Source: a virus
Lineage: Duplodnaviria > Caudoviricetes
IMG/VR virus record: IMGVR_UViG_3300019370_000055
Coordinates: 60,012 to 124,011 of that record
Strand: one strand, 5' to 3'
Length of the DNA: 64,000 nucleotides
Every line of letters starts with the position of its first letter. The first letter of the stretch is position 1. The notes under the pieces were generated by a model. The model searched no databases and was not told the origin of the DNA. It saw only the letters and a list, made by a program, of their open reading frames with translations. This document shows, one piece after another, positions 2,611 to 25,507 of this stretch. A program made the translations under genes and the position numbers.

Positions 2611-2811
2611 ATGATTAGATGTAATAATTGCGGAAAAATATTTATGAATGAAGAAGATATACCTATTCTTATTGAATGGGAAAACGGGGAAACAAAAATA
2701 TTGGAGGTTGGAAAATTTACAAAGCCCGGAGGTGAGACATTTAGAGGCTGTCCGCATTGTATGACGGATATGTATTTGATGGATATGGAGGATAATGAAA
2801 ATGCGAGTTAA
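2611..2811 (+). CDS. small Zn-ribbon protein
   Basis: CNNC...CPHC; RBS. Confidence 0.6.
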   Translation: MIRCNNCGKIFMNEEDIPILIEWENGETKILEVGKFTKPGGETFRGCPHCMTDMYLMDMEDNENAS

Positions 2812-2995
2812 AACGGTTTATGTCAAAGACAAGCAGCGTCTTAATTTGAGCAGTTTTCCGAATTTCAGTGTGACAGGCAGTATTGCGGGAATGAAGAAAA
2901 AATACTATGGTGAGGACGCATTACTTGTTCGTTGTGGCAGTTGGATTTATAACGTAACCAGTAGACCAGACATTTACTATGGTGAGGCACATTAA
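2795..2995 (+). CDS. hypothetical phage protein
   Basis: ORF with GGAGG RBS. Confidence 0.6.
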   Translation: MKMRVKTVYVKDKQRLNLSSFPNFSVTGSIAGMKKKYYGEDALLVRCGSWIYNVTSRPDIYYGEAH

Positions 2996-3012
2996 ATAAG
3001 GAGACTGGAAAA

Positions 3013-3213
3013 ATGGATCGTATCAAATTAGGTATTAATCATGAAAAGTTGGCAGAGCAAGGTTGGAGTTTTGAAGATTGGAGCGATATTTATTCTTACA
3101 TAAGCGGACTTGTGGATTGGCTGGAAAGTCACAACAAAAATTACACAAAAGAACAATATCATAAGATTGTTATTTTAAAGGAAATTCTGGATTGTATTGA
3201 TTATGGAGTATAG
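3013..3213 (+). CDS. hypothetical phage protein
   Basis: ORF with RBS. Confidence 0.6.
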   Translation: MDRIKLGINHEKLAEQGWSFEDWSDIYSYISGLVDWLESHNKNYTKEQYHKIVILKEILDCIDYGV

Positions 3214-3242
3214 GCAGTAATGCCAGAAAGGACAAAGTAAAA

Positions 3243-3446
3243 ATGGATAGATGGACGAAAAAACAACTTGAAGAAATGAACGATTTAGATTTTGCGATTT
3301 GTATTTTGACGGAGCGGAGAAATAAAGTAAGCCCTTATTCTCCATTAGGTTTGAAATTAGATCAAGCACGACGCACATTAAATAAAATAAGAAATGAAAA
3401 GGTTGGTATGTCATTATTGCCTATAAGGGAGGAATTGGAAAAGTGA
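3243..3446 (+). CDS. hypothetical phage protein
   Basis: ORF with RBS. Confidence 0.55.
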   Translation: MDRWTKKQLEEMNDLDFAICILTERRNKVSPYSPLGLKLDQARRTLNKIRNEKVGMSLLPIREELEK

Positions 3447-3646
3447 CCAGTATTGTATATCAAGATAGAGTTGGCGGTTTAATGTACATATATCAACCTA
3501 AATATCCAGCACAGCGTAGTTTGTTTGAACAAAAGCGTACAGAACGGATTATTGCAGCACTGGAAGAATTAAAGCATATTGGAAACATTAATGTCTTTCT
3601 TTATAAGAAAGGTAAGTTGCGGAAAATTGCAGAACACAAAATATAG
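3443..3646 (+). CDS. hypothetical phage protein
   Basis: ORF coupled to the upstream stop (GTGA). Confidence 0.55.
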   Translation: MTSIVYQDRVGGLMYIYQPKYPAQRSLFEQKRTERIIAALEELKHIGNINVFLYKKGKLRKIAEHKI

Positions 3647-3656
3647 GAGGTTTAAA

Positions 3657-3812
3657 ATGCAAGTATATATTGTTTGTGGCGGTTGTGTAGACGATCATCA
3701 TATCATTGCTGTGTATAAATCATAAAAGAAAGCGGAAAAGCGTGTAGAGCAGGAAAATAAAGAATGCAAAGGGCTTCATGCTTATATTGAAGTATATGAA
3801 ATTTCAAAATAG
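3657..3812 (+). pseudogene. small ORF with premature TAA
   Basis: GGAGG RBS and ATG at 3657; in-frame TAA at 3723; frame continues to TAG at 3810. Confidence 0.5.
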
Positions 3813-17991: not shown

Positions 17992-18078
17992 AAATAATGT
18001 CAGGAGGAACAGTAAGCCAACTGACGATGATTTAAGGTAAATAACGGCGCAATCAATAATTAGAAAGGAAATCAAAAA

Positions 18079-18750
18079 ACGAACATTGAGACTAAGGCAA
18101 ACATCGGAGATACTATTTTCTATCTGAAGAAAATCAATCGTGAAACTTGCCCCATCTGCTCTGGTACTGGTAAGATTTGTATTGGAACGGCAATTAATCC
18201 GAATTTTGATTCGCCTGATAAGTTTGCTGAATCTATCAGTGATCAGATTGAGCAGAATTTGACTCAGATTTTGACAGGCGATGTAAGGGAGTATAATTGT
18301 CCTGAGTGTAAGGGTAAAGGTACTGTCAAGGTTGCTGGTCAGCCTAAGTATGAAGTTGGTTCTGGTACAGTAATTACGATTGATACAAATATGAACTCAA
18401 CATCTACAAATGTTACTTATCGTGTAATTGATAGTGATGGATCAAATAGGACGGTTTCAGATGATAAGATGTATCTGAATCAGGAGGCCGCTGAGAAGGA
18501 GTGTCGTTTTATGAATCTGGAGCGGCGAATGGTTCCTCTTGAGTGTATTCAAATTCCACGTTCTTTTGCAAATACAATTCCTTGCAATGAGAAGCTGATG
18601 CGGCGGCTGGACGAGTGGCGTAGTCATCGTAAGTTTAAGACAGAGATTTATGTAGATGAGAAGTTGAATCTGTTTGATGGTTATACTTCTTTCTTGATGT
18701 ATCGAATGCTGGGTATCTTTGATATTCCTGTTGTGATTTGGCCTGAATGA
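18079..18750 (+). CDS. protein with DnaJ-type CxxCxGxG zinc finger and ParB-like C-terminus; apparent ACG start
   Basis: CPICSGTG and CPECKGKG in one open frame from ACG 18079 behind the AAGGA RBS; LFDGY in C-terminal part. Confidence 0.65.
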   Translation, partial: TNIETKANIGDTIFYLKKINRETCPICSGTGKICIGTAINPNFDSPDKFAESISDQIEQNLTQILTGDVREYNCPECKGKGTVKVAGQPKYEVGSGTVITIDTNMNSTSTNVTYRVIDSDGSNRTVSDDKMYLNQEAAEKECRFMNLERRMVPLECIQIPRSFANTIPCNEKLMRRLDEWRSHRKFKTEIYVDEKLNLFDGYTSFLMYRMLGIFDIPVVIWPE

Positions 18751-18950
18751 AAGAAGCTGTAATGGATTTTGTAATTGGCAACACATATCAAGATCGACAG
18801 GGAGATAAGATCAAGGTTTTGGACATTGCTGAGAATCCACAAGATAAATCAAGGGTGGTTATCTATAATAGGAAAAGCAAAGGCAAGAAAGTTCTCCAGT
18901 CGTTTCATGATATATTAATGGACACTATCAAAAGAAAGGAAATGATGTAA
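18747..18950 (+). CDS. hypothetical phage protein
   Basis: coupled ORF. Confidence 0.5.
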   Translation: MKEAVMDFVIGNTYQDRQGDKIKVLDIAENPQDKSRVVIYNRKSKGKKVLQSFHDILMDTIKRKEMM

Positions 18951-19273
18951 TGAAAACTATTAAAAATATTCTTCTTGCCTTGCTTGCGGTTGTTATCGTG
19001 GTCGGAGGAACTTACACCGCTATTCAGTGGGATGCAATCGTAGGTAAATGGCAGACAGAAGCAGATCGAGAGGTATTTAAGCAGACTACAACATATTCTG
19101 AAGTTGCTGCATCGTTTTTGGCTGATAGTTATAAGCAGTATAATGATGCTGAAACAGATACAGATAAGAATACAATTATGGAGTATGTTGTGATGAGGTA
19201 TCCGAATTTGGATACAGATTCTATTGATAACGCAACTCTGCGCCAGTTTTATAATCAGTGTCTCAATCATTAA
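18950..19273 (+). CDS. membrane-anchored protein
   Basis: N-terminal TM/signal segment. Confidence 0.7.
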   Translation: MKTIKNILLALLAVVIVVGGTYTAIQWDAIVGKWQTEADREVFKQTTTYSEVAASFLADSYKQYNDAETDTDKNTIMEYVVMRYPNLDTDSIDNATLRQFYNQCLNH

Positions 19274-19292
19274 AATATAAGGAGAATATAAA

Positions 19293-19832
19293 ATGAAAAA
19301 GTTTAAGATTGTAGCTATCGCTCTTTGTGCAGTTCTTATGACTGGTATCTTGGCTGGATGTATGTATGATAGTGAGGAAACTCAGTATACCAATGAGTTG
19401 AAGGATCAGATTCAGAATAGTATTGGTTTTCCAAATATCACAAATTTCTTTGAGTATTCTCAGTTGAAAGAAATTTATGAGATGCGTGATAATCCTAATC
19501 TTATCTGTTATTGGTATACCAAGAACGAATATACAGGTAAGTGGATTTATCAGGGAACTTGCATTGGATATGGAATTCCTTATGGCGCAGCGATTACCGC
19601 ACCTGAATCTTCTCAGGAGGCTCGTGGTGGAGGAAGTTATTGGAATATTGTATCGCTTGCAGAGCCGAATGGTCTGTATACTGAAAGTGTTGTTACTACT
19701 GCCACATGGATTCTTACGACAAATGATTCTGGTGAAATTGCACCGACATATGTGGAGAGTGAGATCAGTGTAAGTCAGACTAAGATGGATGCTCGTCTTT
19801 GTGAGGACTGGTCTATTCCTGATAACTATTAA
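19293..19832 (+). CDS. lipoprotein
   Basis: LAGC lipobox; GYGIPY and AEPNGLY motifs. Confidence 0.8.
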   Translation: MKKFKIVAIALCAVLMTGILAGCMYDSEETQYTNELKDQIQNSIGFPNITNFFEYSQLKEIYEMRDNPNLICYWYTKNEYTGKWIYQGTCIGYGIPYGAAITAPESSQEARGGGSYWNIVSLAEPNGLYTESVVTTATWILTTNDSGEIAPTYVESEISVSQTKMDARLCEDWSIPDNY

Positions 19833-20044
19833 GGAGTAATTGCAATGGATGATTTTCTGCATGAAATTCTTGAGAACACAAAGAAAATGTTTCCGGGAGC
19901 AACCAGTGTAAGGATTATTGTCACAAATGAAGATGTGAAAGCTACTGCATCTTATAATGGTGAACTGTCCGATTATTCTATGAAAAAGATTGACGGATCG
20001 TGGTGTAGTAAGCGCATATAACGACTTATTCAGTAGGTGTTATT

Positions 20045-20316
20045 ATGGACGTAATTGAAAAATTCCTTCGAGAACATTCAGATGGTAAAGATTATCCAGT
20101 TTGTAGTAGTGAATTGTCAAAGCATTTTGTGTTCCTCGAACTACAATCAGGCGTATGATCAACACAGCACGAAGCAATGGAAGTCCAATCTGTTCCAGTC
20201 CCAAGGGGTATTACATAACAACCGATAGAGAGGAAATCAAAAACACAATCAGTTCATTGCGTGGGCGTATTGCAAAAATGGAAAAGGCTATTGCTGGCCT
20301 TGAAGCGTGTTTGTAA
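20045..20316 (+). pseudogene. winged-HTH protein with a 1-nt frameshift near 20128-20131
   Basis: Joined frames read ..SELSKHF/VPRTTIRRMINTARSNGSPICSSPKGYYITTDREEI..LRGRI. Confidence 0.65.
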
Positions 20317-20360
20317 AACAAAAATCTCCCCTACTGCTTCATGTAGTAGGGGAGGGATAT

Positions 20361-20451
20361 GGCAGATTAACCCTAACTGGTAAGGGACGAGTCTTGAAAA
20401 CTCGCAGTAGTCCGAAAGGGCGTTTGGGTTCGAGTCCCAAATCTGTCGCCA
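20361..20451 (+). tRNA. tRNA-Ser(TGA)
   Basis: GGCAGAT/ATCTGTC acceptor, CGAGT-CTTGAAA-ACTCG anticodon arm, long variable arm, TTCGAGT T-loop, G73, encoded CCA. Confidence 0.92.
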
Positions 20452-20516
20452 GCCTTAAATTAAGGCAAAGAAAACATATTATAATAAGAAATCAAAAACA
20501 GAAAGGAAACAAAACA

Positions 20517-21098
20517 ATGAAAAAGCTGAATGTAACTCTGATTGGTAATTCTCCCCTGATTATGCACTCTCCTAAGTGTGTAAATCCGCTGCATCCGATT
20601 AGCATTGAAATGAAAAAGTACACTTCTAAGAAGAAAAAGACAGAGGAAGATTTGCTGAAGATTTCTGATCTGGAATGGGAGTCTGGTGTTTATTGGGATG
20701 ATACTGTTGGTTTACATATTCCGAATGAGTGCATCAAGGCTACAATCCAGAATGGCGCAAAGGCCAATCGTAAGGGCGCAGATATTTCCAAGTATCTTCA
20801 GGTTGATACTTTAATGGCTCCTGTTGATATTTCTGAGCCGCAGAATTATGAGATTTTGAAAACTGATAATCGTTATCGTGATGTGCGTTCTGTTTGTGTG
20901 CAGCGCAATCGTGTGATTCGTACACGTCCTCGTTTTAATACATGGAAAGTAACTTTTGATATTTCTTATGATGAGAATATGATGGATATTTCCACTATCA
21001 TCAATGCAATCGAATATGCTGGCAGTTATGTTGGCCTTTGTGAAATGCGTGATCGTGGATATGGTAGATTCTCTGCTAATATTGTTGAGGTAGCGTAA
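20517..21098 (+). CDS. stand-alone Cas7/Csm3-like RAMP-fold protein (193 aa), putative guide-RNA-binding effector
   Basis: LNVTLIGNSPLIMH (first strand), IPNECIKATI (cf. IPGSSLKG), Arg-rich RNRVIRTRPRF, Gly-rich C-terminal loop GSYVGLCEMRDRGYGRF; AAAGGA RBS before ATG 20517. Confidence 0.78.
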   Translation: MKKLNVTLIGNSPLIMHSPKCVNPLHPISIEMKKYTSKKKKTEEDLLKISDLEWESGVYWDDTVGLHIPNECIKATIQNGAKANRKGADISKYLQVDTLMAPVDISEPQNYEILKTDNRYRDVRSVCVQRNRVIRTRPRFNTWKVTFDISYDENMMDISTIINAIEYAGSYVGLCEMRDRGYGRFSANIVEVA

Positions 21099-21116
21099 GA
21101 TTTATAAGGATATAAA

Positions 21117-21152
21117 GTCTGTACCATGCTACAAGTGTGGTATGGTACAGAC
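21117..21152 (+). other. stem-loop at the 5' end of the pentamer array (leader or processing signal)
   Basis: GTCTGTACCATGCTACA pairs with TGTGGTATGGTACAGAC; no U-tract follows. Confidence 0.7.
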
Positions 21153-21162
21153 ATAAAATTGA

Positions 21163-21412
21163 GGATTATAGGGTCTGGTATGGTGAGGTTGGATAGGCTC
21201 GGATAGGATCAGGTATGATGAGGTAAGGATTTTAAGGTATGATATGGTCAGGTTGGGTATGGTTGAATCGGGTAGGATGCGGTATGGTAAGGATTTTAAG
21301 GCCCGGTAAGGTAGTGTATGATTAGGTTAGGTTAGATTAGGTGTGGTATGAATTTTAAGATTTGGCAAGGTCAAGTGAGGTGTAATCTGGTTTGGTTAGG
21401 TAAGGATTTAAA
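21163..21412 (+). ncRNA. GGT-NN pentamer array 1: four units of 11, 11, 10 and 9 pentamers separated by GGATTTTAA
   Basis: Strict 5-nt period with GGT/GAT/GGC triplets and variable dinucleotides; delimiters at 21227, 21291, 21350, 21404. Confidence 0.85.
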
Positions 21413-21443
21413 AAGATATTTTTAATAAAGGAGTAAAATCAAA

Positions 21444-21893
21444 ATGAAAACAAATAAGCAAGTAGAAAAACTTGTAAATTATATTGTCGAAAAGGACTAT
21501 GGAACAGTAATTTTTCATCAGGAAATTGCGAATTTGCTTGGTGTTCAATATGGTTCACAGCAATATAGTAGTATTGTTCAAAGGGCAAAAAAGAAGTTGC
21601 TTGAAGCTGGCAAGATGATTGATTGTGTTCGCAAAACGGGATATGAAATTATTATGCCAGATAACTATACTAATTCCGCAGTAAAAGCACTTTCTGATGG
21701 CGCAAAAAAGATTGATAAAGGTGGCAAAATTATGGGTAATGCTCCAGTACAGAAAATGAGTCCTGCTGGTCTGGAATCATATAATCTTGTAAATGATCGT
21801 TTGCATCTTGTTCGTGCTGCTATTGCAGGAGCAGTCGTAGAAGTTAATATGCTTAGTCAAAAGCGACCTCATCCTCTTGCATTAACAAAGTGA
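21444..21893 (+). CDS. winged-HTH accessory protein located between the two arrays
   Basis: HQEIANLLG...VQRAKKKLL..IDCVRKTGYEI (HTH plus wing), helical C-terminus; AAGGAG RBS. Confidence 0.7.
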   Translation: MKTNKQVEKLVNYIVEKDYGTVIFHQEIANLLGVQYGSQQYSSIVQRAKKKLLEAGKMIDCVRKTGYEIIMPDNYTNSAVKALSDGAKKIDKGGKIMGNAPVQKMSPAGLESYNLVNDRLHLVRAAIAGAVVEVNMLSQKRPHPLALTK

Positions 21894-21906
21894 TATATTA
21901 GATTAA

Positions 21907-22030
21907 GGTAAGGATTTTAAGGTTAGGTTTGATGGGGTGTAGTGAGGTATGATATGGTGAGGTTTGGTATGGTTAGGATTTTAAGGTACGGTATGATTCG
22001 GTTCGGTTAGGTCAGGTGGGGTATGGGTGT
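21907..22030 (+). ncRNA. GGT-NN pentamer array 2: two units of 11 and 8-9 pentamers
   Basis: Same grammar as array 1; GGATTTTAA at 21912 and 21976. Confidence 0.85.
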
Positions 22031-22036
22031 AAAAAA

Positions 22037-22059
22037 TCTCCCCCATAAAGTGGGGGAGA
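22037..22059 (+). other. hairpin between array 2 and the tRNA-like gene; a similar hairpin lies at about 20326-20354
   Basis: TCTCCCCCA-TAAAG-TGGGGGAGA; may also terminate the minus-strand immR/immA-like transcript. Confidence 0.65.
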
Positions 22060-22064
22060 AATAT

Positions 22065-22158
22065 TGGAGAATGGTGGAATGGTAGACACGCCGCCACTAT
22101 AGAGCGGTGGAAGGTAGCGCAACCTTCTTTGTAGGTTCGAGTCCTACTTCTCCAGCCA
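22065..22158 (+). tRNA. class II tRNA-like gene with non-canonical anticodon loop (identity unassigned)
   Basis: TGGAGAA/TTCTCCA acceptor plus G-CCA, Leu-like D arm, long variable arm, GTAGG-TTCGAGT-CCTAC T arm; anticodon arm CCGC-CACTATAGA-GCGG. Confidence 0.75.
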
Positions 22159-22783
22159 AATTATAACGTTGATTAACCAATCTTCTCATATCATTTTCCC
22201 AAGCTGTTTTTCTGTGACTACGTTTCCACTTGAGATATTCTCTCCAACGCACATCAGAAGCCTCCCATGACAGCCCAAAGACACGCTGAACATCCTGTGC
22301 TGACTGAATACGAAGCTGGTCATATAAAGGCATAGGACAAAGCAGGAGGGCGGCAAAGTAGTCTGCTTCTCCCTCCAGTTCAGGATTAGAAAGGTTATTA
22401 AAGTTGTTTTCTGCGATCCGTGGCTCTGCCAAGTAAGGAAGATGATTTAATTTGACATGACCAAGTTCGTGTGCCAGAGTCCAACGAATACGGCCTATAA
22501 CATTGTTGTTAGCTGTAGAACTATTAACAAGGACAAGGTATCTATCGTTCGTTATGTCATAATGGGTACAGCCACTTTCACTTTCGCATAATGCAAAAAC
22601 TTCATCTAAACTACATGAATTGATTTTAGCAAAAGTAGAATATGGCATTATTCTACAGTTTTCAATCTGATTAAAAAATAGCCGAGGATTCATAGGGAAA
22701 CTGATAGAAGGTAAGCTGCGGTAAAGTTGTAGAACTTGGTTGCAAATATACGCATATCTAATCAAGAGTCTATCACCTCGCAA
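22097..22783 (-). CDS. ImmA/IrrE-family metallopeptidase (antirepressor)
   Basis: RIRWTLAHELGH...EGEADYFAALLLCP. Confidence 0.9.
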   Translation of the reverse strand: MRGDRLLIRYAYICNQVLQLYRSLPSISFPMNPRLFFNQIENCRIMPYSTFAKINSCSLDEVFALCESESGCTHYDITNDRYLVLVNSSTANNNVIGRIRWTLAHELGHVKLNHLPYLAEPRIAENNFNNLSNPELEGEADYFAALLLCPMPLYDQLRIQSAQDVQRVFGLSWEASDVRWREYLKWKRSHRKTAWENDMRRLVNQRYNLAGEVGLEPTKKVALPSTAL

Positions 22784-22817
22784 TTATCATAGCAAAATTA
22801 GTGTCCAATAAAACGGA

Positions 22818-23168
22818 CTATTCATTATCATCTCTAAAAGCATAATCAAAGCCAAGACGAAGCATCTGCATCATGCGCTGCGGGTCGCCTTTAATCATTT
22901 TTGACTTTGCTCTTTGTATTGAAATAATATCTGGATCACCACAAATTTCATCTGCCGATGTAGGAATTTCGGTTAGGCCAAGCAGATAGTCTACTGTGAC
23001 ACCAAAGTATTGTGCTATTGCTTTAATTTTGTCTACTCCGGGCGTACTGGTTGCTTTCCATTTTTTTATCGTGGAATTTGAAAATCCACAATCGCTTTCT
23101 AAACGGGCTATGCTGATTTTCCTTTCTTCACATAGTCTTTGAATGCGATCATACAGTCCAAGTTCCAT
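22818..23168 (-). CDS. XRE-family HTH repressor (ImmR/CI-like)
   Basis: ISIARLESDCGFSNSTIKKW...IAQYFGVTVDYLLG. Confidence 0.92.
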   Translation of the reverse strand: MELGLYDRIQRLCEERKISIARLESDCGFSNSTIKKWKATSTPGVDKIKAIAQYFGVTVDYLLGLTEIPTSADEICGDPDIISIQRAKSKMIKGDPQRMMQMLRLGFDYAFRDDNE

Positions 23169-23183
23169 AAAATCCCCTCCATT

Positions 23184-23263
23184 TAGAATATTATCTCATT
23201 TTATGCTTGACATTGAGAAAACTATCTGGTATAGTATGACCGTGGGATTGAGAAAGTTATCTC
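23184..23263. promoter_or_regulatory. divergent control region: + strand promoter and three candidate XRE operators
   Basis: TTGACA 23207 - 17 bp - TATAGT 23230; TTGAGAAAACTATCT 23213, TTGAGAAAGTTATCT 23248, TAGAATATTATCTCA 23184. Confidence 0.65.
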
Positions 23264-23295
23264 TACATCGCCCATTATACGGTAAATAATCTAAT

Positions 23296-24042
23296 TTGTC
23301 AATACTGAATAGGAGTGTGGTTAAGTTGCATAATAAAATTAAGCCTGTGGACAATGTGAGGATGCTTTCTTTGATTTCTCTATTGAGCAAGTACGATTTA
23401 TTCCATATCACAACTGATAATGGAAGGGAATTTAATGCGACTGAAATTGTTAGTGAAAATGAAGGATATTTAGAGTTCAAGCGTCTTTTTGCGAATTCAG
23501 TCTATTCTAATGGCTGTATTACAGATATTCAAGCCATTTGCGAAACTGAGTTTGTCTGCAAAACTTCTACTGTGACATATCATATTTCTGCATTACATAT
23601 TAAACCGCAGAATCCTATTATTAGGGAACGTAAAACGTGGAAAGAAATATCCGACTTGATGGATGTAAATTATATTGGTGAACGTTTGATTCGTTATATC
23701 AAGGAATTGGATATGCTGGTTCTGGCGATTGATCCTATTCTGTTGGGGGAATTACACCCTATGGAGCAGCGGCAGATTCAACATCTTATTAATGCCTATT
23801 TGGATGGATATTCTGATTTGTTGCAGATGAGCCGTACTGTATGTTTTCAAGTTAAGCTGTATGATGGACGGAATAGGATTTATGCTGGAGTTTATGATCT
23901 GGAAGGCCAGTGTTCAGTAACCAGTGTTCTTATTTATGATGACCGGGATAAGGAGAATTTTTCTGATGAGTTTTATAATAAGGCACAGGCCATATTAAAA
24001 TATGCAAAAACGACAGCTACCAAAATCTTCTTTCAAAATTGA
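23296..24042 (+). CDS. hypothetical protein divergent from the repressor (start uncertain)
   Basis: 248-aa ORF. Confidence 0.65.
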   Translation: MSILNRSVVKLHNKIKPVDNVRMLSLISLLSKYDLFHITTDNGREFNATEIVSENEGYLEFKRLFANSVYSNGCITDIQAICETEFVCKTSTVTYHISALHIKPQNPIIRERKTWKEISDLMDVNYIGERLIRYIKELDMLVLAIDPILLGELHPMEQRQIQHLINAYLDGYSDLLQMSRTVCFQVKLYDGRNRIYAGVYDLEGQCSVTSVLIYDDRDKENFSDEFYNKAQAILKYAKTTATKIFFQN

Positions 24043-24048
24043 ATATTG

Positions 24049-24098
24049 TGCTTGACATTTCAGGTCAAGCATGATAGTATAATAACAGGATAATCAAT
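24049..24098 (+). promoter_or_regulatory. promoter of the mazF-like gene with a palindrome over -35 and a downstream 17-bp operator
   Basis: TGCTTGAC-N7-GTCAAGCA; TTGACA 24052 - 17 bp - TAGTAT; ATAACAGGATAATCAAT at 24082. Confidence 0.65.
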
Positions 24099-24122
24099 AA
24101 TCATTGAAAGGGGGGTGCTGAT

Positions 24123-24473
24123 ATGAAGGCAATAAAAAGGGGAGATATTTATTATGCTGATTTAAGCCCCGCAATAGGAAGTGAACAAGGTGGTATTCGT
24201 CCAGTTTTAATAGTTCAAAATAATGTCGGGAATTATTATAGTCCAACTGTGATTATTGCTGTCTTGACTTCTAAATCAAAGAAACATTTACCAACACATA
24301 TCAGCATCCATTCTGGAGAAGGTAACATTGCTATGGATTCTACAGTATTACTGGAGCAACTACGAACAATAGACAAAAATAGGCTTCAGAAATATGTAGG
24401 TAGCGTTTCAGATGATACAATGGATCGTGTTGACCGGGCCATGCTGGTCAGTCTTGGATTAAATATAGCATAA
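24123..24473 (+). CDS. mazF: PemK/MazF (EndoA-like) endoribonuclease toxin
   Basis: KRGDIYYADLSPAIGSEQGGIRPVLIVQN...LEQLRTIDK. Confidence 0.93.
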   Translation: MKAIKRGDIYYADLSPAIGSEQGGIRPVLIVQNNVGNYYSPTVIIAVLTSKSKKHLPTHISIHSGEGNIAMDSTVLLEQLRTIDKNRLQKYVGSVSDDTMDRVDRAMLVSLGLNIA

Positions 24474-24544
24474 TAACAGTTTATTCAAAAAACATCTTGA
24501 CAATCGTGCTTAAATCTGTTATCATAGTAAGTGAGGTGATAATC

Positions 24545-25507
24545 ATGATTGAGCAATCCGTTATGGATAGGTACATCGCAGAATCATCTTTGAATATGAC
24601 AGAAACAAGCAGGATTAATTCTGAAAACCTTTTGACAAGATTTTTTAATTTGAAACCTTCAGTAGACTTTGTTGATCTACGAAAAGCTGACCTGATTGAA
24701 ATGTATTCTCAATTAAACCAGCATTCAATCAATGGATTCATTACTCATAAAAGTAAAATTAATGATTTTGCTAAATGGATGTATGAACAAGGTTATGGGT
24801 CAATAGAACTGTTGCATGATATTTCTGATTTAAAATATTCGGATATAAACCACGACTATTTGTACGATATTTATTATTTCAGAGATATTGAAGAATTGTG
24901 GTCTGTTATGTCGTTGATACTTAAAGATAAAGGTACAGAGTTTGATACTTTTAAAGCGGCAGCACTTTTAACTTGGTTGGGAATTGATTTGAACGATATG
25001 ACAGAGATATTAAAAACTGATTTAGATGAATCAAATCAATGTATCATTCATCCAGTCACCAGAGAAGCAGTTGAAATTCCTCCAGTAGATTTGCACGATA
25101 TGATTTTTTCTTTCTTGATTAATTATCGTGATGCAGATTCATGTGACACAAAAAAGTTTGGTGGCGGCATTCTTCCTTATGCAAATAGTCAGTATCTTTT
25201 GCGCAGCTATAAAAGCGCACATCTTACAGTTGTTCAATTAAGAAAGACTTCTGATCCTGTAAATCAATTAGCAAAAAAAGAAGAAGCACAAAGAATTTTT
25301 CAATGGAACAAGATTTATTTGTCTGGCCTATATTACCGAATTTATCAATATGAGCAGCGGTATGGTTCGATAGAGAAAGATGTAAAAATGCTTGATAAAT
25401 TCTTCCTTTGTAATCAAAAAGAAACTGTTCAAAAGTTAGTAGCATTCGATAGAAAGTATAAAGAATATCAAACATTTATAAAATGCAAAATGCGTTTAAA
25501 TGCTTGA
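24545..25507 (+). CDS. tyrosine-recombinase-fold protein lacking an obvious catalytic set; resembles the SPbeta YopR/MrpR repressor
   Basis: SAM-like N-terminus (..KINDFAKW), ALLTWLGI..D...I...D, YLLR and NKIYLSG segments; own promoter TTGACA 24497 / TATCAT 24520; operators on both sides. Confidence 0.6.
   Translation: MIEQSVMDRYIAESSLNMTETSRINSENLLTRFFNLKPSVDFVDLRKADLIEMYSQLNQHSINGFITHKSKINDFAKWMYEQGYGSIELLHDISDLKYSDINHDYLYDIYYFRDIEELWSVMSLILKDKGTEFDTFKAAALLTWLGIDLNDMTEILKTDLDESNQCIIHPVTREAVEIPPVDLHDMIFSFLINYRDADSCDTKKFGGGILPYANSQYLLRSYKSAHLTVVQLRKTSDPVNQLAKKEEAQRIFQWNKIYLSGLYYRIYQYEQRYGSIEKDVKMLDKFFLCNQKETVQKLVAFDRKYKEYQTFIKCKMRLNA

Follow-up and report, generated by a model that had tools for sequence, protein, structure and literature searches.

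A cassette in the genome of a mouse-gut phage is a VIPR system, made up of a gene for the RAMP protein Vipr, a vap gene and two guide arrays. The nine-letter word that punctuates these arrays is very probably the junction between adjacent vrRNAs in a staggered array of the kind outlined in the legend of fig. S18 of the discovery preprint (10.64898/2026.04.26.720920). VIPR, a CRISPR-like system that silences DNA under the guidance of RNA and was first described in 2026, combines Vipr (an ancestral RAMP), vap and vrRNAs of 9-16 GGY-NN repeats, in which the NN letters read double-stranded DNA and every third base is skipped (bioRxiv 10.64898/2026.04.26.720920). According to the legend, the vrRNAs of staggered arrays derive from positions that overlap by 1 nt, so that the start of each is marked by the end of the one before; small-RNA sequencing in the preprint left this architecture unconfirmed (10.64898/2026.04.26.720920). 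The system, its code and, going by the legend, the staggered architecture are already published. The additions made here are modest. They are an AU-rich type of junction, the reading of its final two letters as part of the guide that follows, and several predicted targets. The locus is a clear-cut natural illustration of how the end of one guide and the start of another are marked in a VIPR array that lacks tails.

The window, the whole stretch of DNA that was analysed, comprises 64,000 nt (positions 60,012-124,011) of the 124-kb genome IMGVR_UViG_3300019370_000055 (Caudoviricetes), and coordinates refer to it unless the handle of another locus is given. By look-up of sequencing runs, the phage occurs in mouse gut samples of 11 studies; a 5-kb near-identity search of the phage collection gave no match. 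The edges of the cassette are formed by tRNA-Ser(tga) upstream (20361..20451, +) and tRNA-Ile(tat) downstream (22065..22158, +), both called by ARAGORN and Rfam. Between them lie vipr (20517..21098, +), which encodes a Cas7-like RAMP of 193 aa, and vap (21444..21893, +), a 149-aa accessory gene that splits the guides into array 1 (units 1-4) and array 2 (units 5-6). An Rfam search over 18000-25000 at E<=1 returned the two tRNAs only, and no ribozyme.

The sequence-only reading had placed exact copies of the word, GGATTTTAA, on the + strand at 21227, 21291, 21912 and 21976, with variants at 21163, 21350 and 21404. All were recovered at these positions, the variants being one or two letters off. 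Base composition predicts 0.008 exact copies in 760 nt, against the four observed. Genome-wide, 1.3 copies are expected per strand in 124 kb and four are present outside the locus, and the 14-mer formed by the word and its flanking letters occurs three times at the locus and nowhere else in the genome. It had also been noted that the word breaks the 5-nt phase each time, and this is what is found: each copy shifts the register by -1, the phase of GGT (position mod 5) running 2, 1, 0, 4 through array 1 and 2, 1, 0 through array 2. The pentamer before the word is, as described earlier, usually GGTAA (four cases) or GGTTA (one), with GGTAT in one case.

The two arrays, both on the + strand, can be laid out as follows. 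Array 1 is opened by junction 0, a variant ending in AG (21163..21171), and continues with unit 1 (21172..21226, 11 pentamers), junction 1 (21227..21235, exact), unit 2 (21236..21290, 11 pentamers), junction 2 (21291..21299, exact), unit 3 (21300..21349, 10 pentamers), junction 3 (21350..21358, a variant with one mismatch) and unit 4 (21359..21403, 9 pentamers); it is closed by junction 4, a further variant (21404..21412). Array 2 opens right after the vap stop with a GGTAA pentamer and the exact junction 5 (21907..21920), followed by unit 5 (21921..21975, 11 pentamers), junction 6 (21976..21984, exact) and unit 6 (21985..22029, 9 pentamers), after which no junction is found. Successive words of array 1 are spaced 64, 64, 59 and 54 nt apart, which corresponds to 9 nt plus 11, 11, 10 and 9 pentamers; the two words of array 2 are 64 nt apart (9 nt plus 11 pentamers). 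Of the 61 pentamers counted, 56 have G at position 1, 46 have G at position 2 and 58 have T at position 3; positions 4-5 carry all 16 dinucleotides. Pentamer arrays were not found elsewhere in the 124-kb genome. Repeats of CRISPR size were not found.

What identifies the neighbouring gene as vipr? Its product matches phrog_4652 (E 8e-49) and has about 130 homologues in cultured phages, including that of Escherichia phage phiSUSP1 (30.9% identity over 98% of the length, E 8e-21, tblastn). Tracts of GG-periodic pentamers are present in the gaps beside the gene at every homologous phage locus opened, in Pseudomonas, Escherichia, Mycobacterium and Gordonia phages, and such tracts adjoin the homologue in nearly all of 59 bacterial and archaeal loci, almost always on the strand of the gene. 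The window follows the same pattern, with six units of 9-11 pentamers beside vipr on the same strand, constant at positions 1-3 and free at positions 4-5. An AF2 model of the protein (pLDDT 83) predicts a RAMP fold: 63 PDB chains match it at E<=0.001, led by Csm3/Cas7 proteins of types III and VII (E 5e-6). The protein is predicted to bind the pentamer repeats.

Cryo-EM has revealed a helical filament with one Vipr protomer per repeat, in which one protomer holds G1 and G2 and the next holds Y3 (10.64898/2026.04.26.720927). The residues of SUSP1 Vipr that make these contacts are H17, R138, D177, W178 and R179 (10.64898/2026.04.26.720927). Three of the five are invariant between the window protein (H17, R137 and R178) and Vipr of the SUSP1 clade; the other two are substituted (D177 to E176 and W178 to M177).

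The vap product matches phrog_5926 weakly, and direct BLASTP against type II vap proteins is only marginal; by hhalign, vap of the gut clade belongs to the same family as vap of type II-like loci (probability 97.9%, E 5.8e-13). The locus resembles type II VIPR, as in Escherichia phage SUSP1 and a Pseudomonas fulva prophage, in its homologous Vipr (31-36% identity) and homologous vap, in its repeat code with a one-base skip at wobble positions, and in having rival mobile elements as targets. Type II guides end in a conserved pseudoknot tail of about 40 nt that caps the filament (10.64898/2026.04.26.720920; 10.64898/2026.04.26.720927), and the gaps of 45-70 nt between the tracts of type II-like loci leave room for such a tail. 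By contrast, only 9 nt lie between the guides of the window, so that no type II tail fits. None is present: RNA folding predicts no structure at any copy of the word, in agreement with the earlier remark that the repeat forms no hairpin. The staggered VIPR arrays, as the fig. S18 legend presents them, share with the locus a Vipr RAMP and GGY-NN guides that abut with a one-base overlap of register, with neither a structured tail nor a ribozyme. The 1-nt overlap described in the legend is seen at every junction of the window. Unlike the arrays of the legend, the window array is split in two by vap.

The six closest relatives with junctions (L005-L008, L011 and L012), whose Vipr proteins are 64-84% identical, have arrays in the same place, and their junctions have the length and shape seen in the window with different letters. 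The 7-nt core of these junctions is mostly GGATTAT, less often GGATTTT, GGGTTAT or GGTTTCT; in the window phage it is GGATTTT. The two letters after the core vary freely in L006, L007 and L011. The code of the next guide appears to begin with the last two letters of the word, which leaves a constant separator of seven letters. The word had been proposed as a linker; because its last two letters behave as guide letters, it is not purely one.

Identical copies within one phage could reflect a recent duplication of units, in which case the word would be a scar of duplication, or else a promoter element belonging to each unit, without any role in RNA; one promoter-like match does fall in array 1. 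This explanation is extremely improbable. The core is kept in the relatives, whose guides are entirely different, and promoter-like sites show no enrichment (7 found, 6.8 expected from shuffled sequence).

More distantly related loci show which feature of the junction is general. In a hidden-Markov parse of all fetched loci, a gap of 4 nt after a GG pentamer, equivalent to a shift of -1, is by far the commonest short linker, with 47 cases. Distant GC-rich clades have GGCAGGC followed by two variable letters at the junction, with the same -1 shift. In contrast to the AU-rich core of the window, these GGCA-type junctions are not AU-rich, and AU-richness is therefore not a conserved property.

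The composition of the junction matters for a mechanism put forward in the sequence-only reading, by which the AU-rich linker is left unprotected between protein filaments and cut by a host RNase. In the form considered here, the AU-rich part of the word would lie naked between two Vipr filaments, and a single-strand endonuclease of the host (RNase Y or J in Firmicutes, RNase E elsewhere) would cut it and release unit-length guides. The word is indeed unstructured and AU-rich, and GG followed by AUU resembles the known preferences of RNase E and RNase Y. The relatives come from MAGs labelled Clostridia, Oscillibacter and Dorea. There is no Cas6 to do the cutting: the earlier statement that no Cas6-like gene is present held up, PF01881 being absent from the 124-kb genome and found in control genomes. 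The hammerhead-separated arrays of other VIPR types also show that separating guides matters. However, the junctions of the GC-rich relatives have the same geometry and are not AU-rich, which weakens AU-rich cutting as a general rule. Cutting of the AU-rich linker by a host RNase is a reasonable hypothesis for this clade, and as an explanation of the word it is possible but doubtful. As to its products, the word does bound separate guides, but "unit-length" is too strong a term because the lengths of the units vary (9-11 pentamers here, 7-16 in relatives).

A second alternative gives the 7-nt core an active part, as a 5' handle that is recognised by Vipr or vap and that starts or caps a filament, and not as a passive gap. 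The distribution of junctions along arrays agrees with this: in the gut clade, 11 of 11 arrays open with a junction and only 6-7 close with one. So does a very similar motif in Alf5 (L002), an Escherichia phage of the SUSP1 clade with a type II locus, where GGGT(C/T)TTTTAA, often doubled, stands directly 5' of all four repeat tracts (at about 2185-2200, 2320-2335, 3580-3592 and 3733-3745). This motif closely resembles the junctions of the window and is nearly identical to those of L008. Yet the letters of the core are wholly different in the GC-rich clades, which keep the geometry, and the cryo-EM text describes flexible 5' ends and names no contact with a 5' handle (10.64898/2026.04.26.720927). 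A dedicated handle is, on this evidence, rather unlikely.

The likeness between the Alf5 motif and the junctions suggests that they may share a 5'-boundary signal. A bolder version of the idea, and a long shot, is that the AU-rich core is an ancient and sequence-specific 5'-boundary signal common to staggered and type II systems, at which Vipr itself, an ancestral RAMP, cuts. If this were true, a single protein would do the jobs that were later divided between Cas6 and Cas7.

Where does the reading of a guide begin and end? The units were decoded by the published rule of two bases read and one skipped, and were then searched in public collections, whose sizes are not given and for which chance expectations of exact scans are rough. 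Stronger support for a target comes from codon phasing, from extension of the match into dinucleotides that were not queried, and from a permutation test. Natural targets were found for three or four of the six units.

The first 10 dinucleotides of unit 2 match exactly in nine IMG/VR contigs of other phages, all at one site. The site lies in a gene for a P-loop helicase-like protein (phrog_2467), which is absent from the window phage, and every skipped base falls on the third (wobble) position of a codon. For unit 1, which has no exact match in IMG/VR, three metagenome contigs were matched; they are apparently from one study and identical in sequence. Here 23 of 24 code letters match L084:10535-10569(-), in frame within a gene of 234 aa whose product is 35% identical (E 5e-27, BLASTP) to that of a 248-aa gene of the phage itself. 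This gene (23296..24042, +) lies outside the arrays and adjoins a pair of genes with HTH and Peptidase_M78 Pfam domains (a repressor/protease pair).

The targets of units 5 and 3 came from a mismatch-tolerant rescan of all fetched sequence. Unit 5, whose first 10 dinucleotides have no exact match in IMG/VR or metagenome contigs, matches L084:3539-3573(-) in 22 of 24 letters, at the 3' end of a 150-aa gene (its final 11 codons and stop codon). It also matches L200 in 21 of 24 letters, at a place with no matching reading frame. The target of unit 3 is weak (18/22 at L084:9984-10015(-)) and intergenic, about 180 nt downstream of the gene targeted by unit 1. When the order of dinucleotides was permuted, the scores of units 1 and 5 on the 13.5-kb L084 locus were reached in 0 of 1000 permutations and that of unit 3 in 5 of 1000; skips of 0, 2 or 3 bases gave only background scores at this locus. 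The score of unit 1 is partly circular, because L084 was found with the unit 1 guide, whereas those of units 5 and 3 are not.

Unit 4, which specifies too few letters for a scan of the public collections, gave only background and no target in local scans, and no convincing target was found for unit 6. Searches of units 3 and 6 with nine dinucleotides returned two matches and one match, respectively; these look like chance, being unrelated and not codon-phased, and were rejected. Five whole phage records with the target of unit 2 contain no match to unit 1 or unit 5 at up to three mismatches. The guides have no self-targets in the phage genome.

The predicted targets fit the published picture of interference of phage against phage. 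Two guides, and weakly a third, fall on one rival element, and one of them matches a homologue of a gene of the phage's own. The element, L084 (OFFK01001449.1), is 16.8 kb long and encodes a Tn916-type excisionase, an SprT-like protein and a resolvase-like protein.

The ends of the matches coincide with the junctions. The final two letters of the junction before the unit match the target in unit 1 (AG) and in unit 5 (AA). In unit 5 the last pentamer matches as well, and complementarity spans exactly from junction to junction; in units 1 and 2 the final GGTAA pentamer is mismatched. A guide of 16 pentamers in L007, queried with 10 dinucleotides, matches more than 116 contigs, all within a motif of the family-A DNA polymerase gene. 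Its unqueried dinucleotides 11-14 match at 79/79, 79/79, 69/79 and 79/79 sites. The second letter of dinucleotide 15 matches at 79/79 and both letters at 22/79; dinucleotide 16, in the last pentamer, does not match, so that complementarity ends before the junction. Two guides of L011 match the same polymerase loci, and in one of them most targets are matched by the junction's two letters and by the last pentamer alike. The 3' limit of reading differs between guides, because the last pentamer matches in unit 5 and in L011 and does not in units 1 and 2. Nothing reads across a junction. Since the matches to targets are bounded by junctions, the units are separate guides. The target matches alone indicate that a guide is read from the final two letters of one junction up to, but not into, the following junction.

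The guides of L007 (3786-3865) and L011 (3221-3270 and 3280-3329) spell conserved motifs of the family-A DNA polymerase gene, with targets at L085-L164; the gene is represented in more than 116 IMG/VR contigs. A second L007 guide has no match. The family-A DNA polymerase gene appears to be a favoured target in the gut clade.

How might a junction keep two guides apart? The mechanism favoured here joins the register shift, the conservation of the 7-nt core in relatives and the junction-to-junction target matches, all observed in this analysis, to features taken from the literature, namely the geometry of the filament, the joint holding of GGY by neighbouring protomers and the silencing of DNA. 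The terminal pentamer GGATT, itself unread, would share one base with the pentamer that leads the next guide. This leader would carry T-W-T in place of GGY, and its last two letters would be the first code dinucleotide of that guide. The GG anchors on either side of the junction are 9 nt apart, not 5 or 10, a step that protomers spaced at 5 nt could probably not bridge. One filament would end at GGATT and a new one would start on the leader pentamer. Protomers would be out of register across the junction, and therefore each unit would have its own filament and its own guide. The transcript would be physically cut at or near the junction. Each guide would read double-stranded DNA of rival mobile elements by the two-read, one-skip code.

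The sequence-only reading had offered, next to cutting, the idea that the word caps the length of the filament. This fits, since with the published one protomer per pentamer two filaments that are separated by a step of 9 nt cannot share a register. According to the published structure the Y3 pocket excludes purines, and most relatives have a purine as letter three of the terminal pentamer. A purine at Y3 is not a general stop signal, because L008 and the GC-rich clades have a pyrimidine there.

It could also be that the array is never cut, and that a long transcript carries out-of-register filaments like beads on a string, the junction doing no more than reset the register. No nuclease or ribozyme is evident in the cassette, and contigs from RNA libraries span several units, although contigs prove little. 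The contigs that cover the arrays come from four metatranscriptome runs in three studies; they lack information on ends and strand, and carry-over of DNA is possible. An uncut array is quite improbable: the vrRNAs of type II occur as separate RNAs of about 100 nt, other types have hammerheads between their guides, and processed vrRNAs are mentioned in the legend of fig. S18. Beyond that mention, the VIPR preprints consulted do not address the processing or maturation of guides. With two genes, six guides and a 9-nt separator, the locus is compact and would make a convenient test bed for guide maturation.

The hammerhead-interspersed VIPR arrays (fig. S19 of the same preprint, 10.64898/2026.04.26.720920) likewise have several guides per transcript that must be told apart. 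There the guides are separated by self-cleaving ribozymes, of which Rfam finds none here. In class 1 CRISPR systems processed by Cas6, as in the window, a protein of the RAMP family coats the guide, and a constant element punctuates the variable guides and contributes handle letters to the mature guide. Unlike them, the window has no palindromic repeats of 24-40 nt and no Cas6; its guide code is non-contiguous, and its separator is 7-9 nt long and unstructured.

Several further features of the locus and its relatives were recorded. A hairpin of 16 bp lies between the vipr stop and the first junction (21117..21152, +). Two GGT-NN pentamers make up its 3' arm. The closest relative, L005 (about 3093-3127), has retained the hairpin, with compensatory changes in two pairs. 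Since no U-run follows, it is no intrinsic terminator; it may be a regulatory or processing element. After array 2 there is a GC-rich hairpin (22037..22059) with a terminator score on the - strand only. The tRNA-Ile(tat) gene on the + strand overlaps about 60 nt of the 3' end of a Peptidase_M78 (ImmA-like) frame on the - strand (22097-22783). In L005, apparently homologous sequence follows the array directly, with no intervening tRNA.

The vipr frame of the relative L009 (2501-3079) is broken by a stop inside the region that matches Vipr, and an ORF of 125 aa (2702-3079) is all that is left. In the array of this locus (3222-3336) the parse gives 23 pentamers in a single continuous tract, with no junction to divide it. 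The locus may be decaying, or it may represent another architecture.

A contig from an RNA library (run X19) represents a strain variant of the phage with an in-register deletion of 54 nt (21271-21324). The deletion joins pentamers 1-7 of unit 2 directly to pentamers 6-10 of unit 3, with the loss of one junction. The same contig differs at two single positions as well: the junction at 21227 begins with A instead of G, and one code letter of unit 1 (21195) is G instead of A. The arrays seem to evolve by recombination on the scale of units as well as by point changes.
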